Shown piece after piece: positions 14,463-32,455 of a DNA stretch of 64,000 nucleotides. Every line of letters starts with the position of its first letter. Within the stretch, counting starts at the first letter, position 1. Origin of the DNA: Thermoanaerobaculia bacterium. Lineage in GTDB: Bacteria; Acidobacteriota; Thermoanaerobaculia; UBA5066. The notes below the pieces were generated by a model. It was given only the letters and a program-made list of their open reading frames with translations, made no database searches and was not told the origin of the DNA. The stretch spans positions 19,627-83,626 of the forward strand of contig JBBQDQ010000001.1 of the NCBI GenBank assembly GCA_038319835.1. The letters run 5' to 3'. The translations under genes and the position numbers were made by a program.

Positions 14463-16019
14463 CCGAGAGTCGACGCGGGCGTCGCGGAAGTCCTGGAGAC
14501 CCGCATCGCGGAGCTGGCCGCGACGTACCTTCCGCTCGCGGTCGAGATGCTCCGCGAGGCCGTCCGGATCCCAGGCGACTACGTCGACAAGCCCGCGGAC
14601 GCCGGCGGCGATCCTCTCTGCGGCCTCTCGAACCACGAGCTCCCGCGCCTCGAGTACCTGAAGAAGAAGATCGTCGAGATCCGGGCCGTGCGCCGGCCCG
14701 AGGACGCGTTCTTCGACGGCTTCGGCAACCTCGTGTGGCAGGTCGAGGATCCCGACGACGGGATCGCGCCCGCGAAGAAGAAAGTCGTCTACATCGACGG
14801 GCACACCGACACCGTCCGCGCGCTGAGGGACCAGTGGCGGGCGAAGGTCGGCGGCGTCGACTGCTACGACGGCCTCCTCGACCGGTCGAAGGTCAACCGG
14901 GAGTTCCTCCTCAAGGAGCTCGGCTGGGTGCCTCCCGAGTCCGAGTGGGAGCACCTCGTCTTCGGCCGCGGCGCGGCCGACCAGCTCGGCGGCGTCGTCG
15001 CGGCGGCGATCGCGACGAAAATCCTCGTCGAGCTCACGCGCGAAGGCTCGCTCAAGGGCGCGATCGTCCGCTCGTACGCGACCGTCTGCGAGGAGGACAA
15101 CGACGGCGCCGGGCCGATGTACCTCAATCGCGAGATCTTCCCGACCGCGAAGCCGGAGCTGATTCCCGACGTCGTCATCCTCACGGACGGCACCGGCTGC
15201 AACAGGCGCGGCGCCCTCGGGATCTACCGCGGCCAGCGGGGCCGGATGCAGATCGAGGTCTCCGTGACGGGTAAGTCCTGCCACGGGTCGATGCCGTGGG
15301 AGGGGCTGAACCCGTTCGAGTACGGGGCGGCGATCGTGCGCGAGGCCGCGGAGGCCTACGAGAGGCGCGACGGCTTCCTCGACGACCCGTTCCTCGGCCA
15401 CGGCACGCGCACCGCGTCGTGGGCGCGCCTCGACACGCCGAGCGACTGCGCTGTCCCCGAGCGCCTCGCCTTCCGCTTCGACCGCCGCCTGACGATCGGC
15501 GAGACGCCCGAGCGGGCGCTCGAGGACGTCGAGCGCCTCCCCGCCGTCGCCGCAGCGCGCCGGGCCGGCCTCGTGGTCGACGTCTCGGTGCCCGTCTACC
15601 CGAATGCGAGCTGGAAGGGCTACGTCCTCGGCAACCCGCAGGTCTACCTCGGCTGGGTCACGCCCGAGGATCACCCCGCGATCCGCGCCGCCGTCGCGAC
15701 GTACCGCTCCGTCGTGAGCCCGCACGTGGACGGGGAGATCGGCACGGGCGGCGTCCTCACGAAAGAGCCGCGCGTCGAGCGCTGGGTGTTCTCCACGGAC
15801 GGCGTCGGCTTCCCGGTCCCGAAGGACGCGAGCGTCCCGGGTGCGGCCGGCAAGGGCTGGGTCGTGGGCGAGCGCTACAAGCACCCCGCGATGTTCGGGT
15901 TCGGGCCGGGCATCGAGCAGAACACGCACAAGATCGGCGAGTGCCTCGACGCGCGCGAGATGCAGCACTGCGCCGCGTTCCTGGCGCGCTTCCCGAGCGT
16001 CTTCGCCGCGCCGCGCTGA
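14463..16019 (+). CDS. ygeY: M20-family peptidase/amidohydrolase (YgeY-like)
   Basis: ATG at 14463 preceded by GGAGG with a 5-nt spacer. M20 dimetallo-hydrolase fold motifs ('IDGHTDTV', 'VFGRGAADQLGG', 'ATVCEEDNDGAG'). First gene of the syntenic cluster. Confidence 0.7.
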   Translation, partial: PRVDAGVAEVLETRIAELAATYLPLAVEMLREAVRIPGDYVDKPADAGGDPLCGLSNHELPRLEYLKKKIVEIRAVRRPEDAFFDGFGNLVWQVEDPDDGIAPAKKKVVYIDGHTDTVRALRDQWRAKVGGVDCYDGLLDRSKVNREFLLKELGWVPPESEWEHLVFGRGAADQLGGVVAAAIATKILVELTREGSLKGAIVRSYATVCEEDNDGAGPMYLNREIFPTAKPELIPDVVILTDGTGCNRRGALGIYRGQRGRMQIEVSVTGKSCHGSMPWEGLNPFEYGAAIVREAAEAYERRDGFLDDPFLGHGTRTASWARLDTPSDCAVPERLAFRFDRRLTIGETPERALEDVERLPAVAAARRAGLVVDVSVPVYPNASWKGYVLGNPQVYLGWVTPEDHPAIRAAVATYRSVVSPHVDGEIGTGGVLTKEPRVERWVFSTDGVGFPVPKDASVPGAAGKGWVVGERYKHPAMFGFGPGIEQNTHKIGECLDAREMQHCAAFLARFPSVFAAPR

Positions 16020-16023
16020 CGCC

Positions 16024-19000
16024 ATGGAAAGAGCCTTCCGACCCCTTCCGCTCGAGCGTCTCGCGCGGTGGGTGTTCGGGGATCTCGCGTCCGCGGACTC
16101 GGTGCTCGGGATTCCGAGGGCGAACTTCGCCGTGCCCGAGGCGCGGCTCGCGTCGCGCGTACTCGGCCGGCGCCTCGCCGCTCCGCTCGGCCTCGCGGCG
16201 GGGCCGCACACGCAGCTCGCGCAGAACATCGTCGCGGGCTGGCTGTGCGGCGCGCGTTTCGTCGAGCTGAAGACGGTCCAGGTCCTCGACGAGATCGACG
16301 TCGGCCGCCCGTGCATCGACTCGGCCGACGAGACGTTCAACTGCGAGTGGTCGCAGGAGCTCCGGCTCGAACAGTCTTTCGGCGAGTACCTCAAGGCGTG
16401 GGTGCTGATTCACGCCCTCGCCGCCCGGATGGGGCTGCCGGAGCCGGGAGCGCTCTTCGCGATGAGCGTGGGTTACGACCTCGCCGGGATCAGGAGCCCG
16501 CGCGTCGCGGGGTTCGTCTCGCGGATGCGCGACGCGGGCGCCGCCCTGCCCGCCGCCGTGGACGAGGTCGCGAAGGCGTGGCCCGGCGTCCGCGACGTCC
16601 CGATCCCGGCGCGCCTCTCCGACCACGTGACGCTCTCGACGATGCACGGCTGCCCGCCGGCGGAGATCGAGAAGATCGCCCGGCACCTCCTCGAGGACGT
16701 CGGCGTCCACACCTGGATCAAGCTCAACCCGACGCTCCTCGGCCCCGAGCGCGTCCGGGGGCTCCTGAACGGGGCGCTCGGCTACGCGATCGAAGTCCCG
16801 GACGAGGCGTTCGCGCACGACCCGCGCCTTTCGGACGCGCTCCCGGTCCTCGAGCGGCTCGCCGAAGCGGCGCGCGCGCGGGGCCTCGGGTTCGGCGTCA
16901 AGCTCTCGAATACGCTCGAAGTCGTGAACCGCCGGCCCGTCCTCCCGCCGAAGGAGAAGACGGCGTACCTCTCGGGCCGCGCGCTCCACCCGCTCACGCT
17001 GAGCCTCGCGCGCCTCGTCGACGACGAGCTCGAGGGGCGGGTGCCGATCTCGTTCTGCGGCGGCGCCGACGCCTGGAACTTCGCCGACCTCGTCGCGGAC
17101 GGTCTGACGCCCGTCACCGTCTGCACGGACCTCCTCAAGCCGGGCGGCTACGCGCGTCTCTCACAGTACCTCGCGAACCTTGGCGCGGCGATGTCGGCCG
17201 CGGGGGCGGCGGACCTCGACGCCTTCGTGGCCGCGACGTCGGGAGGCCGCGGGCGCCGCTGGAACCTCGCGCGGCACGCCGGGCGCGTCGCCGCCGACGG
17301 CCGCTACGCGCGCCGCGCGCGAGAGCTCGCCTTTAAGGGCAGCCGCCCGCTCGGGCCGTTCGACTGCGTCGCGGCCCCTTGCGTGGAAGCCTGCCCCGCA
17401 CATCAGGACGTCCCTGGCTACCTCCGGCTCGTCGCGCAGGGCCGCGACGACGAGGCGCTGAACGTCATCCGCCGGTCGAACGCGTTGCCCGGCGTGACGG
17501 GCAGCATCTGCGACCGCCCGTGCACGGAGCGCTGCGTCCGCAACTTTTACGACGCGCCCGTCGGGATCCGCGAAGTGAAGCGCTTCGCGGTGGAGCACGG
17601 CAGGACGGCTGCGGAGGCGCCGGCTGCTCCCGTGGGCGCCGCGGTGGCGATCGTCGGCGCCGGCCCCGCCGGGATCTCGGCCGCCCTCGAGCTCGCACGC
17701 CTGGGCTTCGCCGTCGAGATCTTCGAGGCGACGAGCCGCGCGGGCGGGATGGCGGGCGGCGCCGTGCCGCGTGACCGGCTCGACGACGCGAAGCTCAGGG
17801 GCGACCTCGAGAGGCTCGCGGCGCTCGGCGTGAAGATCCATTTCAAGACCGCGGTCGGAACGGACGTCCCGCTCGCGGACCTCTCCGCGCGCTTCGTCCA
17901 CGTCTTTCTCGGGGTCGGTGCCGGGAAGGGGAGGCGCCTCGGCATCCCCGGCGAAAGCGCCGAGGGCGTCGTCGACGCGCTGGAGCTCCTGAGCGGCCTG
18001 CGCGAGGGCGCGGCGCGGCCGCTCGGCAGGCGCGTCCTCGTCGTCGGAGGCGGTAACTCCGCTCTCGACGGCGCGCGCTCGGCCCGCCGCCTCGCGAAGG
18101 GCGGCGAGGTCTCCCTCGTCTACCGCAGGACGCGCGCGGAGATGCCCGCCGATCCGGGCGAGGTGAAGGACGCGCTCGCCGAGGGCGTCCTCTTCCGCGA
18201 GCTCCTCGCGCCGTTGCGCGTCGTCGTCGAGGGCGGGCGCGTCGTGGGTCTCGCGTGCGCGCCGATGACCCTCGGCGCTGCCGACGCCTCCGGCCGCCCG
18301 CGGCCGGTTCCGACCGGTGGGAGCGAGGTCGTCCTTCCGGCCGACACGATCGTCACCGCGATCGGACAGGAGCCCGCCACCGTGCTCCTCGGAGGAACGC
18401 TCTCCGCGAAGGAAGACGGGACGCTCGCCGCACGCGCCGGAACGGGCGAGATGCCGCAGCCCGGGCTCTTCACGGGCGGCGACGCCGTCCGCGGCCCCTC
18501 TTCGATCATCGAGGCCGTGGCGGACGGGTTCGCCGCGGCGCGCGAGATCGCCCGGCGGCACGGCATCGTCGTCGCCCCCGAGCCGCGGCCTCCGGCGCGC
18601 GCCGACGGCGCGGATCTCATGGCGAAGAAGGCGAGCCTCGTCGGGCCCGAGCCGGTGCCCGAGCTCCCCGTGGAGGAGCGCGGGGGCTTCGACGAAGTCC
18701 TCCGAAGCCTGGGCGCCGAGGCCGCCCGGCGGGAAGCGAGCCGCTGCCTCGACTGCGACGAGGCGTGCGGCCTCTGCGTCACCGTCTGCCCGAACCGGGC
18801 CAACCTGTCGTATGCGGTCCCGCCGCTGGCGCTCGAGCTCCCGTCGTTCGTCGTCGAGGCGGGGCGGGCGGTCCCGTGCGGGACGACGACGTTCTCCGTC
18901 GCGCAGGGCGTGCAGATCGTCAACGTCGGCGACGCCTGCAACGCGTGCGGAAACTGCACGACGTTCTGCCCGGCTGCCGGCGCGCCGTACCGCGACAAGC

Positions 19001-19317
19001 CGACGTTCTGGATCGACGCCGAGGGCTTCGCCGAGGCGGAGGGCGACGCGTTCCGGATGACGCGCGAAGGCGGCACGACGGCGATCGATGCGCGCGTCGG
19101 CGGCCGGCGCCACCGCCTCGAGCGCCGAGGCGACGCCGCCGAATACGTCTCCGAGTCGCTGCGCGCCACGTTCGACGCGTCGCGCTGGACGCTCGCCGAG
19201 GCCTGCCTCGAAGGGGCGCCCGAGGAAGGGACGTCGCTCGACCTCTCGACGTGCGCCCTGCTGATCGCGCTTCTTCATGCCGCCCCCGCGCTTCCTCCCG
19301 GACGGGAGGCTGCATGA
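16024..19317 (+). CDS. ygfK: YgfK-like multi-domain Fe-S flavoprotein (DHODH/PreA-like TIM barrel + GltD-like FAD/NADPH + 2x[4Fe-4S] ferredoxin)
   Basis: 1097 aa. Cys clusters 'CVAAPCVEACPAH', 'CDRPCTERCVRN', 'CLDCDEACGLCVTVCP', 'CNACGNCTTFCP'. Dinucleotide motifs 'VAIVGAGPAGISAA' and 'VLVVGGGNSALDGA'. Confidence 0.75.
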   Translation: MERAFRPLPLERLARWVFGDLASADSVLGIPRANFAVPEARLASRVLGRRLAAPLGLAAGPHTQLAQNIVAGWLCGARFVELKTVQVLDEIDVGRPCIDSADETFNCEWSQELRLEQSFGEYLKAWVLIHALAARMGLPEPGALFAMSVGYDLAGIRSPRVAGFVSRMRDAGAALPAAVDEVAKAWPGVRDVPIPARLSDHVTLSTMHGCPPAEIEKIARHLLEDVGVHTWIKLNPTLLGPERVRGLLNGALGYAIEVPDEAFAHDPRLSDALPVLERLAEAARARGLGFGVKLSNTLEVVNRRPVLPPKEKTAYLSGRALHPLTLSLARLVDDELEGRVPISFCGGADAWNFADLVADGLTPVTVCTDLLKPGGYARLSQYLANLGAAMSAAGAADLDAFVAATSGGRGRRWNLARHAGRVAADGRYARRARELAFKGSRPLGPFDCVAAPCVEACPAHQDVPGYLRLVAQGRDDEALNVIRRSNALPGVTGSICDRPCTERCVRNFYDAPVGIREVKRFAVEHGRTAAEAPAAPVGAAVAIVGAGPAGISAALELARLGFAVEIFEATSRAGGMAGGAVPRDRLDDAKLRGDLERLAALGVKIHFKTAVGTDVPLADLSARFVHVFLGVGAGKGRRLGIPGESAEGVVDALELLSGLREGAARPLGRRVLVVGGGNSALDGARSARRLAKGGEVSLVYRRTRAEMPADPGEVKDALAEGVLFRELLAPLRVVVEGGRVVGLACAPMTLGAADASGRPRPVPTGGSEVVLPADTIVTAIGQEPATVLLGGTLSAKEDGTLAARAGTGEMPQPGLFTGGDAVRGPSSIIEAVADGFAAAREIARRHGIVVAPEPRPPARADGADLMAKKASLVGPEPVPELPVEERGGFDEVLRSLGAEAARREASRCLDCDEACGLCVTVCPNRANLSYAVPPLALELPSFVVEAGRAVPCGTTTFSVAQGVQIVNVGDACNACGNCTTFCPAAGAPYRDKPTFWIDAEGFAEAEGDAFRMTREGGTTAIDARVGGRRHRLERRGDAAEYVSESLRATFDASRWTLAEACLEGAPEEGTSLDLSTCALLIALLHAAPALPPGREAA

Positions 19318-20693
19318 CGCGGACGCTCGTGAAGAACGGCCGGCTCGCGCTCGACGGCGGCGTCGAGGACGGCGACCTCCTCCTCGAGGGCGGCCGCATC
19401 GTCGCCGTCGGGCGGGACCTCGGCCCGGTCGAGCGCACGATCGACGCGGCCGGCTGCTGGGTCCTGCCGGGCCTGATCGACTTCCACACGCACATCGGCG
19501 ACCGGATCGGCCGCTTTGACCTCGCCGACGACTACGCGAGCGGCACGCGTGCCGCCGTCGAGAACGGCGTCACGACGCTCTGCACGTTCGTGACGCAGTC
19601 CGAAGGCGAGCCGCTCGGCCGGGCGGTCGAGCGGGCGAGGAGCCGCGCGGAGCGGTGCTGCCACGCCGATGTCGCGTGGCATCTCACGCCGACGCGCTTC
19701 GAACCGGCCGACTGGGCGGAGATGGAAGAGCTCGTTCGCGCCGGCTACGGGACGTTCAAGCTCTACACGACGTACCGCGCCTCCGGCCTCTTCTCGGACG
19801 AGGCGCGCATCGCGGAGCTCTTCCGCCGCCTCGGGCCGCTCGGGGTGCGGTTCCTCCTGCACTGCGAAGACGACGGGATGCTCGGCACCGTCGACACGGC
19901 GCGGCTCGACCTCTCGCGCGCCTCCTCGCACGCGTGGCTCAGGCCCGAGGAGGCGGAGGTCGCGTCCGTCGAGGCGCTTCTCGCCCTCGCGGCGCGCTGG
20001 GGCGTTCCGCTCCACGTCGTCCACGTCTCGACGTCCGCGGCCGCGGAGCGGATCCGTGCGGCGCGCGCGGTGCAGGACGTGACGTGCGAGACCTGCCCGC
20101 AGTACCTCTGGCTCGACGTGTCCTGGCTCGCGCGCCCCGACGGGCACCGGTGGATCTGCTCGCCGCCGCTCCGCAACGGGCGCGAGCGGTTCCGCGAGCT
20201 CGCGCGCGCGGGCGCTTTCGACATCCTCGCGACGGACCATTGCGCCTTCACGCGCGGGGAGAAGGACGACTGGGACGGCCGCGACGTGCGGACGGTCGCG
20301 AACGGCCTCGCGGGCCTCGGCGCTCTCGCGCACCTCGCATGGAAGCTCTGGGAGGACGAGCCCGACCGCGCAGCCGCCGAGCTCGCGCGGCGCCTGTCGG
20401 CGAATCCCGCCGCGCGCCTCGGCGCCTCGGACCGCAAGGGTGCCCTCCGGCCCGGCCTCGACGCCGACGTCGCGATCCTCGACCCGAACGGCGACGAGCG
20501 CCCGATCCGCTCGACGCTCGCGGACGCGTACGAGACGTACCCCGGCTTCACCTCGCGCCTGAACTTCCGGCACGTCCTCCTCCGGGGCGAGCCCGTCGTC
20601 CGGGACGGGCGGCTGCTGGAGTCCGCCCGCCCGTCCGGCCGGTCCGCGGCGCGGGCCGCCGTCCGCCCCGGCGCCGCTCTGGGGCCCTCATGA
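19314..20693 (+). CDS. hyuA: Hydantoinase/dihydropyrimidinase-family cyclic amidohydrolase (HyuA-like)
   Basis: ATGA overlap with the ygfK stop. 'VLPGLIDFHTHIGD' metal-binding HxH motif. 459 aa. Confidence 0.75.
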   Translation: MTRTLVKNGRLALDGGVEDGDLLLEGGRIVAVGRDLGPVERTIDAAGCWVLPGLIDFHTHIGDRIGRFDLADDYASGTRAAVENGVTTLCTFVTQSEGEPLGRAVERARSRAERCCHADVAWHLTPTRFEPADWAEMEELVRAGYGTFKLYTTYRASGLFSDEARIAELFRRLGPLGVRFLLHCEDDGMLGTVDTARLDLSRASSHAWLRPEEAEVASVEALLALAARWGVPLHVVHVSTSAAAERIRAARAVQDVTCETCPQYLWLDVSWLARPDGHRWICSPPLRNGRERFRELARAGAFDILATDHCAFTRGEKDDWDGRDVRTVANGLAGLGALAHLAWKLWEDEPDRAAAELARRLSANPAARLGASDRKGALRPGLDADVAILDPNGDERPIRSTLADAYETYPGFTSRLNFRHVLLRGEPVVRDGRLLESARPSGRSAARAAVRPGAALGPS

Positions 20694-20722
20694 CGAAATC
20701 GATTTCGAGACAGGAGCCGAAC

Positions 20723-21916
20723 ATGCCCTCCCTCGCAGCCGCCGCCGAGACCGCCCTCCTCCGGGGCCTGAAGATCGACATGGCCCGGAAGGACTTCCTC
20801 CTCACCTGGGAGCACACCGAAGACGAGATCCGCGCGGTGCTCGCGGTGGCGGAGACCTTCAAGCGTCTCCACCGCGAGGGCCGCTCCTTCCGCGTCTTCG
20901 ACACGGGCCTCGCGATTTCGATCTTCCGCGACCATTCGACCCGGACGCGCTTCTCGTTCGCGTCGGCCGCGAGCGCGCTCGGCCTGTCGCTCGCCGAGCT
21001 CGACGAGGAGAAGAGTCAGGTCGCGCACGGCGAGACGGTGCGCGAGACCGCGAACATGATCGGCTTTCTCACCGAGGTCATCGGCATCCGCGACGACATG
21101 TTCCTCGGCGAGGGACACCGCTATATGCGCGAGGTGGGCGAGGCGCTCACGGACGGTGCGGCAGAGGGCGTCCTCCACCGGCGGCCGAGCGTCCTGAACC
21201 TCCAGTGCGACGTCGACCATCCGACGCAGTCGCTCGCCGACCTCGCCTGGCTGAAGGCGCACTTCGGCGGGCTCGAGAACCTGAAGGGAAGGAAGCTCGC
21301 GATGTCCTGGGCCCACAGCCCGAGCTACGGCAAGCCCCTCTCGGTGCCGCAGGGCGTGATTGGCCTGATGACGCGCTTCGGGATGGACGTCACGCTGGCC
21401 CACCCGCAGGGCTACGGCCTCATCCCGGAGGTCGTCGCGATCGCGGGACGGAACGCGGCGAAATCCGGCGGCTCGTTCCGCGTCGTCGACCGGATGGAGG
21501 AGGCGTTCGCCGGCGCGGACGTCGTCTACCCGAAGTCGTGGGCGCCGTACGGCGTGATGCAGCGGCGGACGGAACTCCTGAAGAAATCCGACAAGGACGG
21601 CCTCAAGGCGCTCGAGAAGGAGTGCCTCGCGAGCAACGCGAGATTCACCTCCTGGGAGTGCGACCGAAAGAAGATGAGCCTCACGAGGAGCGGCAAGGCG
21701 CTCTACATGCACTGCCTCCCGGCCGACATCACGGACGTCAGCTGCAAGGCGGGCGAGGTGAGCGCCGACGTCTTCGAGGAGTACCGGATCCCGACGTACC
21801 ACGAGGCGTCGTACAAGCCCTTCGTCATCGGCGCGCTCATCTTCCTCACCCGGGTCGAGGACCCCGCGGCGAAGCTCGCCGCGATCCTCGAGCGCGACCG
21901 GGCCCTCTCGCTGTAG
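20723..21916 (+). CDS. ygeW: YgeW-like carbamoyltransferase (OTCase/ATCase superfamily)
   Basis: 'STRTR' carbamoyl-phosphate motif and 'HCLP'. ATG at 20723 with AGGAG 6 nt upstream (alternative ATG at 20690 overlaps the hyuA stop). Confidence 0.75.
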   Translation: MPSLAAAAETALLRGLKIDMARKDFLLTWEHTEDEIRAVLAVAETFKRLHREGRSFRVFDTGLAISIFRDHSTRTRFSFASAASALGLSLAELDEEKSQVAHGETVRETANMIGFLTEVIGIRDDMFLGEGHRYMREVGEALTDGAAEGVLHRRPSVLNLQCDVDHPTQSLADLAWLKAHFGGLENLKGRKLAMSWAHSPSYGKPLSVPQGVIGLMTRFGMDVTLAHPQGYGLIPEVVAIAGRNAAKSGGSFRVVDRMEEAFAGADVVYPKSWAPYGVMQRRTELLKKSDKDGLKALEKECLASNARFTSWECDRKKMSLTRSGKALYMHCLPADITDVSCKAGEVSADVFEEYRIPTYHEASYKPFVIGALIFLTRVEDPAAKLAAILERDRALSL

Positions 21917-21925
21917 GAGTGTGCG

Positions 21926-23392: not shown

Positions 23393-24717
23393 CGCGTCTC
23401 CTGATCGAGGGCGGCACGCTCGTGACCTTCGGCGACCCGTGCCGGGTCCTCGAGGGGCGCGCCCTCCTGATCGAGGACGGCCGGATCGCGCACATCGCCC
23501 CCACCGGGGAAATCGCAGGGCCTTTCGACCGCGTCCTTTCGGCGAAGGGGAAGCTCGTCCTCCCGGGCTTCGTGAACGCCCACATGCATTTCTACTCGAC
23601 GTTCGCGCGTGGCCTCGGGAAGGTCGCGCCGAGCGCGACGTTCCGGGAGGTCCTCGAGCACCTCTGGTGGCGCCTCGACCGGGCGCTCACGCTCGACGAC
23701 GTCGAGACGAGCGCGCGGGTGATCCTCCTCGAGGCCGTCCGCAAGGGCACGACGACGCTCGTCGACCACCACGCGAGCCCGCGCGCGGTGCGCGGCTCGC
23801 TCGGGCGCATTGCCCGCGCCGTGAAGGACACAGGCCTGCGCGCGTGCCTCTCGTACGAGGTCTCCGACCGCGACGGCGAACGCACGGCGATCGAAGGCCT
23901 CGAGGAGAACGCGGACTTCGCGCGGGCCTGCGCGCGGGAGCGCGACCCGCAGCTCCGAGCCCTCGTCGGCCTCCACGCCGCGTTCACGCTCTCGGACGCG
24001 ACGCTCGAGCGCGCGGGCCGTCTCGGCCGCGACGTGGGCGCCGGGTTCCACGTCCACGTCGCCGAGGCCGCGTCCGACGTGGAGGAGAACCTCGAGCGCT
24101 TCGGGAAGACCCCGGTCGCGCGGCTCGCCGCGCACGGAATCCTGGGCCCCGGCAGCATCGCCGCGCACGCGGTGCACGTGGACGACGCGGACGCGGACAT
24201 TCTTCGCGCGGGCGGCGCGTGGGTCGTCACGAACCCGCAGTCGAACCTGAACAATGCCGTCGGCGTCGCGGACGTCGCCGGCCTCGTCCGCCGCGGCATC
24301 CCGGTCGGCCTCGGCACGGACGCGATGACGGTCTCGATGCCGGAGGAGCTGCGCGCCGGGATCTGGGCGCAGCGTCTCAAGCAGGCCGACCCCGGCTGCG
24401 GCTTCGCCGAGCTGACCGCGGCGCTCTTCGTGCGCAACCCCGAGATCGCGACGGGCCTCTGGGGCTTCCCGGTCGGGACGCTCGCGGAGGGCGCGGCGGC
24501 GGACGTGATCCTCGTCGACTACGAGCCGGCGACGCCGCTCGACGAAGCCACGGTGCTCGGCCACCTCGTCTTCGGGGTCTCGCAGGCGGCCGTCGATACG
24601 ACGATCTGCGGCGGGAAGATCCTCATGGAAGGCAAGGTCCTCCGCCTCGGCGTCGACGAGGCCGCGCTCGCCGCGGAGAGCCGGCGCCTCGCGGCCGCGC
24701 TCTGGGAGCGGTTCTGA
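23389..24717 (+). CDS. ssnA: SsnA-like amidohydrolase (chlorohydrolase/aminohydrolase family)
   Basis: GTGA overlap with the upstream stop. 'VLPGFVNAHMHF' HxH motif. ~442 aa. Confidence 0.75.
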   Translation: MTRLLIEGGTLVTFGDPCRVLEGRALLIEDGRIAHIAPTGEIAGPFDRVLSAKGKLVLPGFVNAHMHFYSTFARGLGKVAPSATFREVLEHLWWRLDRALTLDDVETSARVILLEAVRKGTTTLVDHHASPRAVRGSLGRIARAVKDTGLRACLSYEVSDRDGERTAIEGLEENADFARACARERDPQLRALVGLHAAFTLSDATLERAGRLGRDVGAGFHVHVAEAASDVEENLERFGKTPVARLAAHGILGPGSIAAHAVHVDDADADILRAGGAWVVTNPQSNLNNAVGVADVAGLVRRGIPVGLGTDAMTVSMPEELRAGIWAQRLKQADPGCGFAELTAALFVRNPEIATGLWGFPVGTLAEGAAADVILVDYEPATPLDEATVLGHLVFGVSQAAVDTTICGGKILMEGKVLRLGVDEAALAAESRRLAAALWERF

Positions 24718-25664
24718 TGGCGTCGCGGACGATCGTCCTCGCGATGGGCGGCAACTCGCTCATCACGGACAAAGAGCACCAGAAGGTGCCGGACCAGTAC
24801 CGCGCGTGCTCCGAGACCTGCCGGCACGTGGCGCCGCTGCTTCGGGATCCCGAGCTCCGCCTCGTCGTCACGCACGGGAACGGCCCTCAAGTGGGCTACA
24901 TCCTGCGCCGCTCGGAGCTCGCGTCGAAGGAGCTCCACATGGTGCCGCTCGACTCGTGCGTCGCGGACACGCAGGGCGCGCTCGGGTACCACATTCAGCT
25001 CGCGCTCCACAACGCGTTCCGGCGCATCGGCCTTTCGAAGGCCGCGGCCACGGTCGTCACGCTCTGCGAGGTGGACCGGGACGACCCGGCGTTCGCGAGG
25101 CCGGATAAGCCGATCGGTTCGTTCCTCACGAGGGAGGAGGCGGAGCTCCGCCGCGCCGCCGACGGCTGGGACGTCGCCGAGGACGCCGGACGTGGCTGGC
25201 GCCGCGTCGTCGCCTCGCCCATCCCGAAGAGGATCCTCGAGCTCGACGCCGTGAGGAGCCTCCTCGACGCGGGCTTCGTCGTCGTGGCCGCGGGCGGCGG
25301 CGGCATCGCGGTCGTCGAGAACGGCGCGGGGGAGCTGGCCGGCGCCGCCGCGGTGATCGACAAGGACCACGCGTCGAGCCTCCTCGCGCGCGAGCTCGGG
25401 GCCGAGCTCCTCGTGATCTCGACGGCGGTCGAGAAGGTTGCGACCGGCTTCGGAACGCCGGCGCAGAAGGAGATCGACACGATGACGGTGGCCGACGCGA
25501 GGCGCTGGGCGGCAGAAGGCCACTTCAAGCCCGGGAGCATGCTCCCGAAGATCGAAGCCGCGATCGCGTTCCTCGAGGGCGGCGGCAAGGAGGCGATCAT
25601 CACGGACCCGCCCCACCTCGGTCTCGCCCTCGCGGGGCGGACCGGCACGCACGTGATCCCGTGA
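24717..25664 (+). CDS. arcC: Carbamate kinase (YqeA/ArcC-like)
   Basis: ATGA overlap with the upstream stop. 'IVLAMGGNSL...VVTHGNGPQVG' carbamate-kinase N-terminal signature. 315 aa. Confidence 0.8.
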   Translation: MASRTIVLAMGGNSLITDKEHQKVPDQYRACSETCRHVAPLLRDPELRLVVTHGNGPQVGYILRRSELASKELHMVPLDSCVADTQGALGYHIQLALHNAFRRIGLSKAAATVVTLCEVDRDDPAFARPDKPIGSFLTREEAELRRAADGWDVAEDAGRGWRRVVASPIPKRILELDAVRSLLDAGFVVVAAGGGGIAVVENGAGELAGAAAVIDKDHASSLLARELGAELLVISTAVEKVATGFGTPAQKEIDTMTVADARRWAAEGHFKPGSMLPKIEAAIAFLEGGGKEAIITDPPHLGLALAGRTGTHVIP

Positions 25665-26839
25665 GCGCCATCCTCCTCGAGAACCCGCTCGCGAAACCCG
25701 GTCAGCGCTGGCCGGCGCCGGACCCGGCCATCCGCGCCTTCCACCGGCGGCTGACGGGCTATCGCCCGACGCCGCTCCTCGACGCCCCCGGCCTTGCGGC
25801 GCGCTACGGCGTGAAGCGCGTCCTCGTGAAGGCGGAGTCGCAGCGCATGGGCCTCCCGAGCTTCAAGATCCTCGGCGCGTCGTGGGCGACGTATCGCGCG
25901 CTCTGCGACCGCCTCGGCTCCGAGCCCGGGCCATGGGCGGACGTCGACGAGCTCGCCCGGCGCGTCGCGTCCCTCAGGCCTTTCTCGCTCGCGGCGGCGA
26001 CGGACGGCAACCACGGACGCGCCGTCGCGCACGTGGCGCGCCTCCTCGGCTTCTCGTGCCGCATCTTCGTCCCCGAAGGGACGTCGCCCGCGCGCATCGG
26101 CGCGATCGAGGGTGAGGGCGCGGAGGTCGTCGTCGTGGACGGCGACTACGACGACGCGGTCGAGCGCTCGGCGGAGGAAGCCGCACCGGGGTGTCTCGTC
26201 ATCTCCGACACGTCGTGGCCCGGGTTCGAGACGATCCCCGGGAGCGTCATGGACGGCTACACGACGATCTTCCTGGAGATCGAGGAGGCGCTCGCCGCCG
26301 CGGGCGCTCCCACGCCGGACGTCGCAATCGTCCCGGTGGGCGTCGGCGCGCTCATGGCGGCCGCCGTCACATTCTTCCGGAGCCGCCCGTGGACGGGAGC
26401 GCTCGTCGCGATCGAGCCCGACGACGCGAACTGCCTGCAGGTCTCCGCGCAGGCCGGGCGGATGACGGCAGTTCCGGGGCCGCATCGCTCGATCATGGTC
26501 GGGCTCAACTGCGGTCTCCCGTCGTCCGTGGCGTGGCCGCGCCTGGCCGCCGGCGTCGACTGGATGGTCGGGATCGGCAGCGACCGGGCGCGCCAGGGCA
26601 TGCGCGAGCTCGCGGAGGCGGGCGTCGTCGGCGGGGAGACCGGCGCCTCGCCGCTCGGCGCGCTCTGCGCGCTCCACGGCGACGTCTCCACGGCGGCCTT
26701 CCGCGCGCGCGGCCTCCTCGGAGAGGACCGGACGGTCCTCCTCGTCGTCACGGAAGGCGCGACGGACCGCGAGCACTACCTTTCCATCGTGGGCCGGACT
26801 CCCGAAGAGGTCGGGGCGTCCGCGGTGCGGAGCCTCTGA
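25661..26839 (+). CDS. ygeX: Diaminopropionate ammonia-lyase (YgeX/DpaL-like PLP enzyme)
   Basis: GTGA overlap with the upstream stop. 'ESQRMGLPSFKILGASW' PLP-lysine motif typical of DAP ammonia-lyase. Confidence 0.75.
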   Translation: MSAILLENPLAKPGQRWPAPDPAIRAFHRRLTGYRPTPLLDAPGLAARYGVKRVLVKAESQRMGLPSFKILGASWATYRALCDRLGSEPGPWADVDELARRVASLRPFSLAAATDGNHGRAVAHVARLLGFSCRIFVPEGTSPARIGAIEGEGAEVVVVDGDYDDAVERSAEEAAPGCLVISDTSWPGFETIPGSVMDGYTTIFLEIEEALAAAGAPTPDVAIVPVGVGALMAAAVTFFRSRPWTGALVAIEPDDANCLQVSAQAGRMTAVPGPHRSIMVGLNCGLPSSVAWPRLAAGVDWMVGIGSDRARQGMRELAEAGVVGGETGASPLGALCALHGDVSTAAFRARGLLGEDRTVLLVVTEGATDREHYLSIVGRTPEEVGASAVRSL

Positions 26840-26850
26840 GAGGAGGGCAC

Positions 26851-29421
26851 ATGGCCACGTTCCACGTCAACGGGCGGGAGGTCACGGCGACCAGGGAGCG
26901 CAACCTCCTCCATCTCCTGCGCGACGACCTCGACGTCACGTCGGTGAAGAACGGCTGCTCGGAGGGTTCGTGCGGGGCCTGCATGGTGCTCGTCGACGGC
27001 CGGGCCACGAAGGCCTGCCTCCTCGACGCCGGCAAGGTCGACGGAAAAAGCGTCGTGACGGTGGAGGGGCTGTCGCCGCGCGAGAAGAACGTCTTCGCAT
27101 GGGCGTTCGCGAACGCCGGAGCCGTGCAGTGCGGCTTCTGCATGCCGGGCATGGTCATCAGCACGAAGGGCCTCCTCGACGCCAACCCAGAGCCCCGGCC
27201 GGAGGACGTCACGAAGGCGCTCTCTCACGGCATGTGCCGCTGCACGGGCTACGTGAAGATCGAGAAGGCGGTGATGGAGTCGGCGCGGATCCTGCGCGAG
27301 GGCGCCGAGGTGCCCGACAGCCATGAGATCCCGCTCGCCGTGGGCTCGAGGGTCCCGCGCCCCGACGCGCTCGCCAAGGTCCTCGGCACCGCCGTCTACG
27401 TCGACGACATGAGGGTCCCGGGAATGCTCCACGGGGCGGTCCTGCGCGCGCCGAAGCCGCGCGTGAAGGTTCTCGGGATCGACGCGACCGAGGCCCTCGC
27501 GCTGCCGGGCGTGATGGCGGTCCTCACGGCGGCGGACGTCCCGGGGCAGCGCCTGCAGGGGCACATCGTCAAGGACTGGCCCGCCCTCGTCGCGGTCGGC
27601 GAAGAGACGCGGTACGTCGGCGACGCGCTCGCGCTCGTGGCCGCCCAGACTCGGGAAATCGCGCGGGAGGCGGTCGCGAAGATCCGCCTCGATTGCGAAG
27701 TCCTGCCGCCGCTCGTCGACCCGCATCGCGCGCTCGACGCGGATGCGCCGCGCCTCCACCCGAACGGGAACCTCCTCGCGAAATCGGTCCTGAGGCGCGG
27801 CGACGCGGAGAAGGCGATCGCCGAGGCGGCGTACGTCGTGCGCGAAAGGTTCCGGACGCCGGAGACCGAGCACGCGTTCATGGAGCCGGAGAGCGCGCTC
27901 GCCGTCCCCGAGCCGGACGGGACGCTGACCGTCTACACGGGCACGCAGAGCATCTACGACGACCTCCACGGGATCGTCGGCGTCCTCGGCGTCCCGCCCG
28001 ACCGCGTAAAAGTCGTGAGCGCGTGCGTCGGCGGCGGCTTCGGCGGCAAGGAGGACCTCTCGGTCCAGCACCACGCCGCGCTCCTCGCGTTCCGGACCGG
28101 TTCTCCCGTGAAGCTGACGCTCGAGCGGCAGGAGTCGATCCGCGTCCACCCGAAGCGCCATGCGATGGACATGGACTACACGGTGGCCGCGGACGCGTCG
28201 GGACGCATCACCGCCGTCTCCGCGCGCATTCTCGAGGACACTGGAGCCTACGCGTCACTCGGCGGTCCGGTACTTCAGCGAGCCTGCACGCACGCGGCGG
28301 GCCCGTACCGGATTGCGAACGTCGACGTCGAGGGGACCGGCGTCTACACGAACAACCCGCCGGGCGGCGCGTTCCGGGGCTTCGGGGTGCCGCAGGTGTG
28401 CTTCGCGATGGAGTCGTGCGTCACGCTCCTCGCGAAGAAGATGGGCCTCGACCCGTGGGAGATCCGCTGGCGGAACGCGGTCGAGCCGGGCGACGTCCTG
28501 CCGAACGGCCAGATCGCCGACGCGGGGACCGCGCTCAAGGAGACGCTCCTCGCGGTGAAGGAGGCCTACCTCTCGCGCCCCGACGCCGGGATCGCGTGCG
28601 CCGTGAAGAACGCCGGGCTCGGCGTCGGGCTCTCGGACGTCGGGCGCGTGAGGATCCGCGTCGAAGGCGGGAAGGCGGTGGTCTACACGAGCGCGGCCTG
28701 CGTCGGGCAGGGCCTCGCGTCCGTCCTCATGCAGTTCGTCGCGGAGGCCTCGGGCCTCTCGTGGGACGCAATCGCGGTGGCGCGCCCGGACACGTCGAAT
28801 TCGCCCGACGGCGGGACGACGACCGCGTCCCGGCAGACCGTCTTCAACGGAGAGGCGGCCCGCCTCGCGGCGCTCGACTTGAGGAGCGACCTCGTCTCCC
28901 ACACGCTCGAGGAGCTCGAGGGCCGCGAGTACTACCGCGAATACTCCGGCGTCACCGACCGCTTCGGGTCCGACAAGCCGAACCCCGTCAGCCACGTCGC
29001 GTACTCGTACGCGACGCACGTCGTCCTCCTCGACGGGAACGGGAAGCTCGAGAGCGTCGTGGCGGCGCACGACATCGGGCGCGCCGTGAACCCCGCGCAG
29101 GTGGAGGCGCAGATCGAGGGCGGCGTCACGATGGGCCTCGGCTACGCGCTCACGGAGGACTTCCCGCTCAGGGACGGCGAGCCGCTGGCGACGTACGGGA
29201 CGCTCGGCCTCCTGAGCGCCTCGAAAGTCCCGCCGATCCGGACGATCCTCATCGAGAAGAACCCCTCGCCGCTCGCGTACGGCGCGAAGGGCCTCGGCGA
29301 GATCTCGACGATCCCGACCGCGCCCGCGGTGGCGGGCGCCTACTTCCGGCGCGACGGGACGTTCCGCACGGAGCTGCCGCTCGCGGGAACGCCCTACAGC
29401 CGGAAGAAAGCGCCCCCATGA
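26851..29421 (+). CDS. xdhD: XdhD-like molybdenum hydroxylase: [2Fe-2S] ferredoxin domain fused to the molybdopterin-binding catalytic subunit
   Basis: N-terminal 'CSEGSCGACMV...CGFCMPGM...CRCTGY' 2Fe-2S motifs. Ald_Xan_dh hammerhead and MoCo domains ('GGGFGGK', 'GQGLASVLMQ'). AGGAGG RBS. 856 aa. Confidence 0.8.
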   Translation: MATFHVNGREVTATRERNLLHLLRDDLDVTSVKNGCSEGSCGACMVLVDGRATKACLLDAGKVDGKSVVTVEGLSPREKNVFAWAFANAGAVQCGFCMPGMVISTKGLLDANPEPRPEDVTKALSHGMCRCTGYVKIEKAVMESARILREGAEVPDSHEIPLAVGSRVPRPDALAKVLGTAVYVDDMRVPGMLHGAVLRAPKPRVKVLGIDATEALALPGVMAVLTAADVPGQRLQGHIVKDWPALVAVGEETRYVGDALALVAAQTREIAREAVAKIRLDCEVLPPLVDPHRALDADAPRLHPNGNLLAKSVLRRGDAEKAIAEAAYVVRERFRTPETEHAFMEPESALAVPEPDGTLTVYTGTQSIYDDLHGIVGVLGVPPDRVKVVSACVGGGFGGKEDLSVQHHAALLAFRTGSPVKLTLERQESIRVHPKRHAMDMDYTVAADASGRITAVSARILEDTGAYASLGGPVLQRACTHAAGPYRIANVDVEGTGVYTNNPPGGAFRGFGVPQVCFAMESCVTLLAKKMGLDPWEIRWRNAVEPGDVLPNGQIADAGTALKETLLAVKEAYLSRPDAGIACAVKNAGLGVGLSDVGRVRIRVEGGKAVVYTSAACVGQGLASVLMQFVAEASGLSWDAIAVARPDTSNSPDGGTTTASRQTVFNGEAARLAALDLRSDLVSHTLEELEGREYYREYSGVTDRFGSDKPNPVSHVAYSYATHVVLLDGNGKLESVVAAHDIGRAVNPAQVEAQIEGGVTMGLGYALTEDFPLRDGEPLATYGTLGLLSASKVPPIRTILIEKNPSPLAYGAKGLGEISTIPTAPAVAGAYFRRDGTFRTELPLAGTPYSRKKAPP

Positions 29422-30218
29422 CGCCGGAAGACGGCGGCCTCGTCGTCGTGCGCGGCGCGGGCGACCTCGGCACCGGGTGCATCGTGCGCCTCGTGAAGTC
29501 CGGGTTCCGGGTGCTCGCGCTCGAACTGCCGAACCCGAGAGCCGTCCGCCGGACCGTGAGCCTGTGCGAGGCGGTACACGACGGTGTGGCGGCCGTCGAG
29601 GGCGTGCGCGGAATCCTCCATTCCTCCGTCCCGGCCGCGTGGGCGCGCGACGAGGTGCCCGTCGTCGTCGACCCGGAGTGCACGAGCCTCGCGCCTCTCG
29701 CACCGCTCGCGCTCGTGGACGCGATCATGGCGAAGCGGAACCTCGGCACGCGGATCGACATGGCCTCGGCCGTCGTCGGGCTCGGCCCGGGGTTCGTCGC
29801 CGGACGCGACGTCCATGCCGTCGTCGAGACGAACCGCGGACACGACCTCGGGCGCGTGATCTACGCCGGCGCCACGCAGGCGAACACGGGGGCACCCGGC
29901 CTCGTCGGCGGGCACGGCGGGGAGCGCGTGCTCCACGCCCCGGCGGGCGGCGTCGTCGAAGCGGTGAAGGCGATCGGAGACCGGGTCGAGGCAGGAGACG
30001 CCGTGCTGACGGTGGATGGAACGCCGGTGCGCGCGGCGATCGCGGGAGTCGTCCGCGGGCTCCTGCGCCCGGGCTCCCGGGTCCACGCAGGTATGAAGGT
30101 GGGCGACGTGGACCCCCGGTGCGTGAGGGAGAACTGCTTCACGATCTCCGACAAGGCCCGCGCCGTCGCGGGCGGAGTCCTCGAGGCGATCCTGACGCTC
30201 GCGCCCGCGGGACGCTAG
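29418..30218 (+). CDS. yqeB: YqeB/EF2563-family selenium-dependent molybdenum hydroxylase system accessory protein
   Basis: ATGA overlap with the xdhD stop. N-terminal 'VVVRGAGDLGTGCIVRL' Rossmann-like segment and overall YqeB-like architecture. 266 aa. Confidence 0.6.
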   Translation: MTPEDGGLVVVRGAGDLGTGCIVRLVKSGFRVLALELPNPRAVRRTVSLCEAVHDGVAAVEGVRGILHSSVPAAWARDEVPVVVDPECTSLAPLAPLALVDAIMAKRNLGTRIDMASAVVGLGPGFVAGRDVHAVVETNRGHDLGRVIYAGATQANTGAPGLVGGHGGERVLHAPAGGVVEAVKAIGDRVEAGDAVLTVDGTPVRAAIAGVVRGLLRPGSRVHAGMKVGDVDPRCVRENCFTISDKARAVAGGVLEAILTLAPAGR

Positions 30219-32455
30219 AAGAGCCACCGGTATCCGAGGTACCAGGCCGTCGCGATGTGGACGGTGATCACGAGGACGAGCAGGACGGCCAGCACGACGT
30301 GGAAGCCGCGCCAGTAGTTCATGACCATCTTCACCGTCCGGTACACGGACGCCTGCCGCCTCATCCTGAGGAGGCGCTTGATCGTCGTCGAGAAGTCGTG
30401 ATGGTCCTGCCGCGTCGGAAAGAGGGACCGACACGAGACGAGCGAGAGACGGACCCGGATCGCGTCCAGGGGGAAGGAGAAGATCGCCCGGAAAAAGCCC
30501 ATCCCCTCGGGAGGATCGGACGTCGCGGTCTTCAGGAGCCAGTGGATGTCCTGCGGCTTGACGACGTTTGCGAGCAGCGGGTTGAGGCTCTCGCGGAGCT
30601 GCACGATCTCGCTCCGAAGCTCCGCCATCTCGAGATAGTGGTCTCCCGCGATGGGGATCAGCCCGAAGAGGAAACGCCCGACGAGCCCCGTTCCGACCAC
30701 GCAGACGAGCGACGTGTAGCAGAGTGTCGCGATCATGTTGTTGGAGCCGAACGCCGCGTGAAAGAGGATGACGAGAGGGCTCATGATGCCGACGAAGACG
30801 TGGAACGTGAGCCACTCCTTGATCGGCTTGCGGCCCTTCAGCCGGCGCCAGTGCTTGCGGAGCGGGAGGAGGAAGTTCGAGAGCATCACGAGCGTCGCCA
30901 CGACCCCGACGCCGTGCCCCCACCCGCCGCCCGGCTTGAGGAACTTGTGGAGCGGTGAGTACGAGCGCTGGGCGAGAGGGAGCCAGTAGTAGTTCCGGCC
31001 CGTGTACCACAGGCCCGCGAGGATGATCACGCCGAGGACGGCCAGCGCCGTGCCCAGCCGGATCCGGTGGCGCTCCTCGGTGTTCTCTTCGGTCAGGACG
31101 CGCGAGGTCGTCGAGACGGACTTCTTCTTCGGCTTCTGGGCCACCTGCCCGACGTGCCGCTGAATGGACACGCCGACGCTCTTGAGGAACTCCGTGGGCA
31201 GGACGCCGCCGACGTTGACGACGACGTAGTCGTTCGCGATCTCGGTCCGGAGCCCGGCGACGTCGATCTCCACCCGGTCCGGGTGAATGGCCACGACAGT
31301 GGAGCTCATGATCGCGTTCACACGGCCGTCCTGGATGAGCTTCTCGATGTTGTCCTTGTTGCGCTGCTTGGCCCGTCCGAAGGCGGGGGACCGGTAGGAG
31401 ATGCTGACCTCGGTCCCCTCCTCGGCGGCGAGCATCTGCGCGATCTCGAGGGCCGAATCGCCTCCTCCGACGACGAGGACCTTCTTCCCGGCGTACTGCT
31501 CCGGATGGAGGAGGAGGTAGGTCACCTTCGGAAGGTCCTCGCCGGGGACCTCCAGCTTGCGCGGAGTCCCCATGCGGCCGATGGCCAGGATCACCTTCTG
31601 ACACCGGATCCGGCCCTTTTCCGTCTGGACCGCGAAGTTCCCGTCTTCGCCGTCGATGCCCGTCACCTTGACGCCGTGAACGATCTTGATCTCGGCCTTG
31701 CGGAGAGCCTCCGTGAACATCTCCATCAGAGCTTCTTTGGAGATGAGGGGCCTGCCGAACTTTCCGTAGAAGGGGAGGTCGACGGTCTCCGTCATGACGA
31801 GCTTCTGGCGCGGGTAGTTCGCGATCGTCCCGCCGAGCGAGGTCCCCTGGTCGATGAGGGCGAAAGAGACGCCCGCCTCCTTCATCGCCAGCGCCGCCGC
31901 GATCCCGGACGGCCCCGCGCCGACGATCACGGCGTGGAACTGCCCTCCGGTCGTGGGCCCGACGACGTCCTTGACGCGCCGCCCCACCTGCAGCCCCTGT
32001 CTCACGGCGTTCTTGATGAGCCCCATGCCGCCGAGCTCCCCGACGATGTGGACGCCGGGGCGGTTCGTCTCGAAGAACTCGTCGACTTCAGGGAGGTCGA
32101 GCCCGCGCTCGCTCGTCCCGAACACGAGCTTGATCGCGCCGACCGGACATTCGAGCTCGCACCGGGAATGGCCGATGCAGTTGGCCGCGACGACGAGCGC
32201 GGCCCGGCCGTCCACGACGCCGAGAATGTCGCCCTCCGGGCAGACCTTGATGCACGAGAGGCTCCCGATGCACGTGTTCGGGTCGATGACCGGGTGCAGC
32301 GAGGGGGGGAGGTGGAGCTCCTTCTCGATCGACGATTTCAGGGTTTGTGTGTCGCGCGTCTGCCGCCTCTGCCGGCGCAGCAGGAACAGGGTGACCCCCA
32401 GGCCCACGGCAAGGAACGACGCGATCAGGACGGTCGGGTTCTGCATGGCCTCCAC
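30215..32455 (-). CDS. Membrane-anchored iron-sulfur flavoprotein (2x[4Fe-4S] ferredoxin domain + pyridine-nucleotide-disulfide-oxidoreductase FAD/NAD(P) domain + C-terminal polytopic membrane domain)
   Basis: 'CIGSLSCIKVCP', 'CIGHSRCELECP', 'VIVGAGPSGIAAA', 'VLVVGGGDSALE', then 6+ hydrophobic helices. Convergent 4-bp overlap with yqeB. Confidence 0.65.
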   Translation of the reverse strand: MEAMQNPTVLIASFLAVGLGVTLFLLRRQRRQTRDTQTLKSSIEKELHLPPSLHPVIDPNTCIGSLSCIKVCPEGDILGVVDGRAALVVAANCIGHSRCELECPVGAIKLVFGTSERGLDLPEVDEFFETNRPGVHIVGELGGMGLIKNAVRQGLQVGRRVKDVVGPTTGGQFHAVIVGAGPSGIAAALAMKEAGVSFALIDQGTSLGGTIANYPRQKLVMTETVDLPFYGKFGRPLISKEALMEMFTEALRKAEIKIVHGVKVTGIDGEDGNFAVQTEKGRIRCQKVILAIGRMGTPRKLEVPGEDLPKVTYLLLHPEQYAGKKVLVVGGGDSALEIAQMLAAEEGTEVSISYRSPAFGRAKQRNKDNIEKLIQDGRVNAIMSSTVVAIHPDRVEIDVAGLRTEIANDYVVVNVGGVLPTEFLKSVGVSIQRHVGQVAQKPKKKSVSTTSRVLTEENTEERHRIRLGTALAVLGVIILAGLWYTGRNYYWLPLAQRSYSPLHKFLKPGGGWGHGVGVVATLVMLSNFLLPLRKHWRRLKGRKPIKEWLTFHVFVGIMSPLVILFHAAFGSNNMIATLCYTSLVCVVGTGLVGRFLFGLIPIAGDHYLEMAELRSEIVQLRESLNPLLANVVKPQDIHWLLKTATSDPPEGMGFFRAIFSFPLDAIRVRLSLVSCRSLFPTRQDHHDFSTTIKRLLRMRRQASVYRTVKMVMNYWRGFHVVLAVLLVLVITVHIATAWYLGYRWLF

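Follow-up and report, generated by a model that had tools for sequence, protein, structure and literature searches.

We analysed a 64,000-nucleotide stretch of DNA (hereafter the window) from a Thermoanaerobaculia bacterium of the phylum Acidobacteriota (assembly GCA_038319835.1, contig JBBQDQ010000001.1, positions 19,627 to 83,626), which carries a putative operon for the anaerobic degradation of uric acid and, within it, a gene for a pyridoxal phosphate (PLP) enzyme, here called PLP485, that has no counterpart in the Escherichia coli version of the cluster. The guanine-plus-cytosine (GC) content is 63–75% across the window and 69–75% over the cluster, and raw lists of open reading frames (ORFs) are consequently crowded with spurious frames. 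Genes were called from the GC bias at third codon positions, with start codons placed by frame transition and ribosome-binding sites. This profiling yields ten consecutive plus-strand genes at 14460–30218, bearing out the ten-gene, one-strand operon proposed in a first-pass annotation of this DNA, although its range of 14463 to 32455 needs correction at both ends: the first ATG lies at 14460, and 32455 is the start of a minus-strand gene, the operon itself ending at 30218.

The genes are tightly packed. Four of the junctions are gaps (4, 29, 9 and 11 nt) and five are overlaps (4, 4, 1, 4 and 4 nt), so that seven are overlapping or no more than 10 nt apart, the same count as had been given before, and the largest gap is 29 nt; an alternative ygeW start, an ATG at 20690, would turn that gap into a 4-nt overlap with hyuA. 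In the upstream intergenic region (14253–14459, plus strand), a ribosome-binding site of sequence GGAGGA precedes the ATG by 8 nt, and a promoter scan found no sigma-70 consensus. At the far end, yqeB and the convergent minus-strand gene (30215–32455) share the palindrome CTAG (30215–30218) as overlapping stop codons, which leaves no space for a terminator between them. Because no gap exceeds 29 nt, five junctions overlap and a scan of the operon found no terminator-like site on the plus strand, we read the ten genes as a single transcription unit. An Rfam scan found nothing, and a tRNA scan returned no tRNAs, tRNA-Sec included.

Product families were assigned with NCBIfam models, using their curated cut-offs, and with Pfam, and identities were measured against the E. 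coli proteins. Six products (YgfK, YgeW, SsnA, YgeX, the molybdenum (Mo) hydroxylase and YqeB) score above the cut-off of a pathway-specific NCBIfam model, and the best profile matches agree with the family labels given to all ten in the first-pass annotation, apart from that of the Mo enzyme. The first gene (14460–16019) encodes a 519-amino-acid (aa) YgeY-like M20 metallohydrolase, which can be aligned with E. coli YgeY over its whole length, at 35% identity and with several insertions, and is 81% identical to its orthologues in the closest related clusters (L002–L005) described below. The H/D/E/H metal-binding and catalytic motifs of the M20 family are kept, the fourth ligand being Asp where E. 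coli has Glu. The second gene (16024–19317) encodes YgfK, an Fe-S flavoprotein of 1097 aa with the Pfam domains Fer4_20 and Pyr_redox_2, which is 37% identical to E. coli YgfK over its full length and matches TIGR03315 at 848 bits (cut-off 835). It is followed by a HyuA-like cyclic amidohydrolase (19314–20693, 459 aa; 33% identity to E. coli HyuA, full length) and by the knotted carbamoyltransferase YgeW (20723–21916, 397 aa), which shares 65% identity with its E. coli counterpart and scores 632 bits against NF005538 (cut-off 453).

PLP485 (21926–23392, 488 aa), a fold-type II PLP enzyme resembling CysK and CBS, is encoded next and is treated separately below. The amidohydrolase SsnA (23389–24717, 442 aa; 33% identity to E. 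coli SsnA) scores 473 bits against NF005540 (cut-off 444) and 446 bits against TIGR03314, slightly under its cut-off of 455.5. The carbamate kinase (24717–25664, 315 aa), equivalent to YqeA and 47% identical to it, exceeds a generic subfamily model (NF009007, 376 bits, cut-off 266) rather than a pathway-specific one. The 2,3-diaminopropionate ammonia-lyase YgeX (25661–26839, 392 aa; 35% identity) scores 314 bits against NF006058 (cut-off 276) and conserves the residues aligned with K77, D120 and D189 of the E. coli enzyme, the first two of which we take to be the two catalytic bases. The last two genes encode a fused 2Fe-2S/molybdopterin hydroxylase of 856 aa that lacks a subunit for flavin adenine dinucleotide (FAD) (26851–29421), and YqeB (29418–30218, 266 aa), a marker of the trait for maturation of selenium-dependent Mo hydroxylases.

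For comparison, 80 related loci centred on PLP485 homologues were examined and numbered from L001 onward. Four of them (L002–L005), all from metagenome-assembled genomes (MAGs) of Holophagales or Thermoanaerobaculia, repeat the ten genes and their order at 66–83% amino-acid identity, although hyuA was undetected in L002 and L004, and because of this recurrence the arrangement is not attributable to chance. Mesoterricola silvestris (L001) has in common only the part from YgeY to SsnA, which is followed there by XdhC. The succession YgeW-PLP485-SsnA is present in all five loci, and in public records their cluster genes are unannotated or generically named.

The related clusters are also richer than that of the window. 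Inserted after ygfK are a xanthine permease of the PbuX type and a porin-like protein of 294 aa, which has a signal peptide, the look of an outer-membrane channel and no family match; in L002–L005 the genes for a maturation factor of the XdhC family and for YqeC (TIGR03172, 180 bits) separate that of the Mo enzyme from yqeB; and in most of these four an RpiR-type regulator lies downstream of the cluster. The first four extra genes occupy approximately 5000–7400 and 17700–19600 of each of L002–L005, and no homologue of any of the five was found in the window. The window operon, complete in its ten genes, is therefore a stripped-down version of the cluster of its relatives. Third-position GC is 0.94–0.97 in the operon region (14000–30000) and about 0.80–0.90 in the left flank, and total GC is 0.69–0.75 in the operon as against 0.63–0.69 in the flanks; this contrast, together with the differing neighbours in relatives, hints that the operon was inserted at its present site. 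The known cultured Thermoanaerobaculia are anaerobes, and on that account the cluster would be less odd in this class than the 'soil-type' wording of the first-pass annotation suggests.

The pathway to which these families belong was solved between 2023 and 2025, and all of its steps have been demonstrated for enzymes of E. coli and Clostridium (Li et al. 2025, Life Metab; Liu et al. 2023, 2025). E. coli reduces urate to 2,8-dioxopurine with XdhD-YgfM, and C. sporogenes does so with the selenium-dependent XdhAC/DOPDH. YgfK then dearomatises the purine, and SsnA, which Li et al. 2025 used as a marker of the cluster, opens both rings together with HyuA to give 2,3-diureidopropionate. ATP is gained from one ureido group by YgeW and carbamate kinase, whose coupling was shown in vitro (Liu et al.), YgeY removes the other, and YgeX forms pyruvate. 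The core of the window cluster is thus already known, in that its gene set, as assigned here, equals the set shown biochemically to degrade urate anaerobically.

Genes 14460–30218 very probably constitute one operon for this anaerobic reductive uric-acid (2,8-dioxopurine) pathway, a reading that draws on family membership, operon structure and conservation in relatives; substrates and the direction of the Mo enzyme are assigned by homology. By analogy with the characterised systems, the FAD-less Mo hydroxylase, a predicted urate reductase of the DOPDH/XdhAC type, would strip the C6 oxygen from urate to give 2,8-dioxopurine. YgfK, the predicted 2,8-dioxopurine reductase according to published work on its family, would reduce and dearomatise this product, and SsnA would open the six-membered ring of dihydro-2,8-dioxopurine to yield ureidomethyl-hydantoin. 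The hydantoin ring would be opened by the HyuA-like enzyme to give 2,3-diureidopropionate, one ureido group of which would be phosphorolysed by YgeW to carbamoyl phosphate, from which carbamate kinase could make ATP. Hydrolysis of the other ureido group by the YgeY-like enzyme would give 2,3-diaminopropionate, and YgeX is predicted to convert this to pyruvate and ammonia (two NH3).

Compared with the E. coli cluster (ygeW-ygeX-ygeY-hyuA-yqeA ... ygfK-ssnA-ygfM-xdhD), the window has the same enzyme families from dearomatisation to pyruvate, counting the YgeY-like and HyuA-like proteins by their full-length alignments, and a YqeB domain, but its gene order differs and all of its genes lie in a single operon; the synteny with enterobacteria that had been proposed thus holds for gene content and not for gene order. 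Furthermore, its Mo enzyme is no orthologue of XdhD and lacks a YgfM FAD subunit, its YqeB is half as long and lacks the XdhC-like half, and no yqeC, mocA or transporter genes are found near the cluster. With C. sporogenes and C. difficile it shares a fused Fe-S/molybdenum cofactor (MoCo) enzyme without an FAD subunit, a likeness of described architecture rather than of sequence identity, and an association with the YqeB selenium-cofactor trait; PLP485, however, is not part of the clostridial version.

Several observations weigh against the urate-pathway reading. The YgeY-like protein has its best NCBIfam match in the YgeY model NF009555 at 196 bits, under the cut-off of 321, a low score that we attribute to its several insertions, and the HyuA-like protein best matches the D-hydantoinase/dihydropyrimidinase model TIGR02033 at 263 bits, under the cut-off of 393. 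The Mo hydroxylase is only 26–30% identical to either E. coli homologue, and sequence alone cannot separate a urate reductase from a xanthine dehydrogenase. Finally, the window holds none of YqeC, XdhC, SelD and a purine permease, although the first two are kept in the cluster by the closest relatives.

The Mo hydroxylase contains the Pfam domains Fer2_2, Ald_Xan_dh_C and MoCoBD_1/2 and matches TIGR03311 ('selenium-dependent xanthine dehydrogenase') at 1308 bits, with a cut-off of 830. It had initially been labelled XdhD, a label that we withdraw: its score against the XdhD-type model TIGR03313 is only 216 bits (cut-off 1102), it is 26% identical to E. coli XdhD and 30% to XdhA, and no homologue of YgfM, the FAD-binding partner of XdhD, was found in the window. 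Its profile scores and domains place it among the FAD-less enzymes of TIGR03311, and it is built in the way described for clostridial XdhAC/DOPDH. Given that there is no YgfM FAD subunit, NADH is unlikely to be the direct electron donor; clostridial XdhAC does not use NAD(P)H (Liu et al.). The regiochemistry is not informed by Glu606 of XdhD, a residue discussed by Li et al., as it sits in an XdhD-specific insertion that is absent here.

YqeB scores 340 bits against TIGR03309 (cut-off 220) and matches only the C-terminal half of the E. coli protein (48% identity to residues 265–530). Its gene overlaps that of the Mo hydroxylase by 4 nt, through which the two are translationally coupled. The absence of the accessory genes selD and yqeC from the window, reported in the first-pass annotation, was confirmed: neither L003 nor E. 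coli YqeC gave a match in the 64 kb, TIGR03172 matched none of the flanking ORFs that were searched with NCBIfam (Pfam alone was used for the other ORFs), and a tblastn search with E. coli SelD found no match in the window or in related loci L001–L081. Homologues of mocA and xdhC were likewise not found in the 64 kb. The selenium-dependent Mo-hydroxylase trait proposed at the outset is accordingly represented in the window by YqeB and not by YqeC. Maturation of the Mo hydroxylase with selenium is indicated, by homology, by YqeB; YqeC and SelD are not among the contents of the window, so that this part of the reading is half supported.

One alternative is that the cluster operates without selenium, YqeB being a remnant and the Mo cofactor carrying the usual sulfido ligand. 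YqeC, XdhC and SelD are all missing from the window, whereas relatives keep XdhC, YqeC and YqeB together, and most of the PLP485-type clusters of other phyla have XdhC without YqeB, which is found in only four of the 40 fully flanked loci. However, the window yqeB is intact, its product is well over the model cut-off and it is coupled to the Mo enzyme gene by the 4-nt overlap. All of the urate-cluster strains in a gut strain library had YqeBC and SelD, and the enzyme was inactive in a selD mutant (Liu et al.). The window covers only 64 kb of the genome, and we consider a selenium-free cluster unlikely.

A second alternative concerns the reaction: the Mo hydroxylase would be a genuine selenium-dependent xanthine dehydrogenase, channelling xanthine or hypoxanthine into urate, with DOPDH encoded elsewhere or with another starting purine. 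The NCBI name of TIGR03311 is in keeping with this, both a xanthine dehydrogenase and a DOPDH of this general type occur in C. sporogenes (Liu et al.), and the protein is a little closer to E. coli XdhA than to XdhD. But it is the sole enzyme of the xanthine dehydrogenase type in a cluster that holds all of the downstream steps, and its single counterpart in clostridial clusters is the urate reductase, that of C. difficile (named 'XdhD') being likewise about 26% identical to E. coli XdhD (Li et al. 2025). The other Mo enzyme of the window differs in its domain order, and its neighbours are unrelated genes. We consider a xanthine dehydrogenase unlikely, and a urate reductase is the preferred assignment. 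We note that this second, unrelated Mo hydroxylase (51112–53726, minus strand) is made up of two subunits, one of 157 aa with 2Fe-2S and one of 714 aa with MoCo, the latter differing from xanthine dehydrogenase in domain order, and that its locus adjoins a Ser/Thr kinase gene.

PLP485 is the component of the operon that the published pathway does not account for. It matches only PF00291, with no NCBIfam equivalog, and scores 104 bits against the CysK equivalog TIGR01139, for which the cut-off is 351. Its relatives are nevertheless labelled cysteine synthase CysK in databases, although the CysK equivalog model is not passed. An AlphaFold2 model (pLDDT 77, pTM 0.84) has CysK and CBS as its top PDB matches, at about 25% identity. 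As in these enzymes, there is a fold-type II core in which an H-R-I-E-G-I-G motif aligns, and the PLP lysine, the S-T-G-N (Asn) substrate loop and the phosphate loop align with those of CysK. Unlike CysK, PLP485 reads GIGDKH where CysK has GIGAGF; unlike both CysK and CBS, it has conserved N-terminal (approximately 80 aa) and C-terminal (approximately 100 aa) extensions and a genomic context of purine catabolism rather than sulfur assimilation.

Relatives of PLP485 with 66–86% identity are present in approximately 590 species-representative genomes from at least eight phyla, among them Acidobacteriota, Bacteroidota, Ignavibacteriota, Verrucomicrobiota, KSB1 and Cloacimonadota. The closest named matches of both PLP485 and the flavoprotein that neighbours the operon, at 80–86% identity, come from Thermoanaerobaculia and Holophagales MAGs and indicate a host in Acidobacteriota, probably in Thermoanaerobaculia. 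Over 80 sequences, 41% of positions are at least 97% conserved, with both terminal extensions included, and at 50% clustering the family forms essentially one full-length cluster. We found no description of this family in the literature searched, and neither of the 2025 papers mentions it; nor did we find there any account of the cluster in these phyla. For YgeX, the gene-neighbourhood scoring of Li et al. used PF00291, which PLP485 matches too, and earlier neighbourhood surveys would for this reason have counted PLP485 as YgeX.

The gene neighbourhoods of PLP485 show a consistent association with carbamoyltransferases. YgeW is encoded immediately upstream in 44 of the 67 loci that have upstream sequence, at a median gap of 8 nt, and a carbamoyltransferase lies just downstream in nine more. 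Among the 40 fully flanked loci, a YgeW-type protein is found in 38, a xanthine dehydrogenase-like protein in 33, SsnA in 32, an M20 enzyme in 31, XdhC in 16 and YqeB in four. Variant clusters also hold a ThrC-like PLP enzyme, a PreA/PreT-like reductase and adenine deaminase. In two Terriglobia loci, L031 and L036, the companions of PLP485 are two carbamoyltransferases, carbamate kinase and a ThrC-like enzyme; the flanks hold housekeeping genes, and neither a Mo enzyme nor XdhC lies within 10 kb. These carbamoyltransferase contexts, those of Terriglobia included, link PLP485 with the lower half of the pathway, where ureido groups are cleaved, and speak against a part in cofactor maturation.

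A compact module of PLP485, ATCase-like and OTC/AOTC-like carbamoyltransferases and carbamate kinase can be delimited in Terriglobia and Bacteroidota MAGs (L031 9947–16171, L036 9998–16331 and L052 9992–14875), of which L052 keeps SsnA and M20 genes upstream. Such a module may extract ATP from both ureido groups. Among distant relatives, whose contigs are too short for informative context, a full-length protein with 46% identity is encoded directly downstream of moaA on a 4-kb contig (L088, 307–2867), where the next gene has no family match.

We propose that PLP485 is an unrecognised, obligatory enzyme of the environmental version of the anaerobic purine/urate pathway that forms a functional pair with YgeW-type carbamoyltransferases, a proposal to which we give about even odds. 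In this proposal it would be a component of the lower, ureido-cleaving half, acting on a free alpha-amino acid made there. The candidate reactions are beta-elimination or beta-replacement on albizziin or 2,3-diaminopropionate: a CysK-type route could form aminoacrylate from an alpha-amino acid with a beta-leaving group, which would be urea in the case of albizziin and ammonia in that of 2,3-diaminopropionate. A precedent within the family for urea-type chemistry is DcsD, a CysK homologue that takes hydroxyurea as its nucleophile. For a catabolic role the chances again appear roughly balanced, with these reactions as the candidates. Against the proposal, the published pathway is complete without PLP485, and with both a YgeY-like enzyme and YgeX present in the window there is no visibly vacant step. 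Two other roles were considered and set aside. A racemase serving an L-specific YgeX is unsupported, as the YgeX of the window retains both of the residues that align with K77 and D120, and a simple replacement of YgeX is at odds with the second PLP enzyme (YgeX or ThrC-like) that the clusters normally hold.

It is also conceivable that PLP485 is not catabolic at all and instead mobilises the sulfur or selenium with which the Mo cofactor is matured, in the manner of a CysK-like desulfhydrase that partners XdhC or YqeB. In many loci the xdhC gene lies about 0.6–2 kb downstream of PLP485, and the 46%-identical relative mentioned above stands beside moaA. However, PLP485 tracks carbamoyltransferases (38/40) better than it tracks xanthine dehydrogenase (33/40) or XdhC (16/40), and L031 and L036 have it without either a Mo enzyme or XdhC in the surrounding 10 kb. 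To our knowledge, moreover, the known sulfuration donors for MoCo are fold-type I desulfurases. We regard a maturation role as improbable, and a catabolic role alongside YgeW as the better account of PLP485.

For the cluster as a whole, an ordinary reductive pyrimidine catabolic cluster (PreA/PreT, hydantoinase and beta-ureidopropionase) can be dismissed as highly improbable, for although the YgfK core resembles flavoproteins of the GltD/PreT type and the hydantoinase scores best against a dihydropyrimidinase model, the profile searches suggested in the first-pass annotation (TIGR03309, TIGR03315 and others) refute it, in that the full-length YgfK model is passed and YgeW, SsnA, YgeX, the TIGR03311 enzyme and YqeB are over their cut-offs, none of these six families being part of pyrimidine catabolism.

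The minus-strand gene that converges on yqeB (30215–32455) encodes a membrane Fe-S flavoprotein of 743–746 aa, with an N-terminal transmembrane helix, a YpdA-like flavin domain, two ferredoxin-like motifs of only three cysteines each (C-x2-S/H-x2-C-x3-C-P) and a C-terminal histidine-rich block of about five transmembrane helices. The first-pass annotation described it accurately and suggested that it could be the electron outlet of the cluster, a role for which there is no comparative support. Orthologues are found at approximately 80% identity in Thermoanaerobaculia and approximately 50% in Myxococcota, those at 83–84% identity sit in unrelated neighbourhoods, and no homologue occurs in the 80 PLP485-centred loci. 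A dedicated electron outlet is therefore rejected, and the flavoprotein is a neighbour rather than a conserved partner of the cluster.

Directly upstream of the operon and on the same strand, 12458–14252 contains a gene for a SigK-like extracytoplasmic function (ECF) sigma factor followed by a 160-aa ORF without a family match, which may encode an anti-sigma factor, and upstream of these is a fasciclin-domain gene in divergent orientation. Elsewhere in the window, a tryptophan-halogenase-like flavoprotein gene overlaps a radical SAM/SPASM gene (3212–5742, plus strand), and the two may form a peptide-modification pair. Two adjacent SPFH/Band 7 genes are found at 34166–36318, followed at 36485–38167 (plus strand) by a gene for a collagen-triple-helix repeat protein with a 9/18-bp tandem repeat at 37215–37297. 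There are three Ser/Thr protein kinase genes (48426–51023, 59172–60599 and 61093–63630), two of whose products have long C-terminal tetratricopeptide repeat (TPR) arrays, and a KbpA-like match was obtained among the flanking ORFs. This match, the SigK-like sigma factor and the fasciclin protein at first suggested an actinobacterial origin, a reading given up in the light of the homology searches.

These observations extend the range of the reductive urate pathway to Acidobacteriota, an environmental phylum that we did not find mentioned in Li et al. 2025, the Liu et al. papers or the supplementary files searched, and its environmental occurrence supports the view that reductive uricolysis is not solely a gut trait. 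With neither XdhC, YqeC nor a permease in its cluster, the window offers a natural comparison for which maturation genes must adjoin a selenium-dependent Mo enzyme. What goes beyond the literature is PLP485, which defines an environmental variant of the cluster, and its conserved pairing with YgeW points to a step that E. coli and Clostridium skip or carry out differently. A 2025 commentary leaves two questions about the pathway, the order in which the ureido groups are cleaved and the stereochemistry of the intermediates, and the substrate of PLP485 would bear on both. If the role proposed for PLP485 is true, that substrate would settle the dispute over which ureido group is cleaved first by YgeW.

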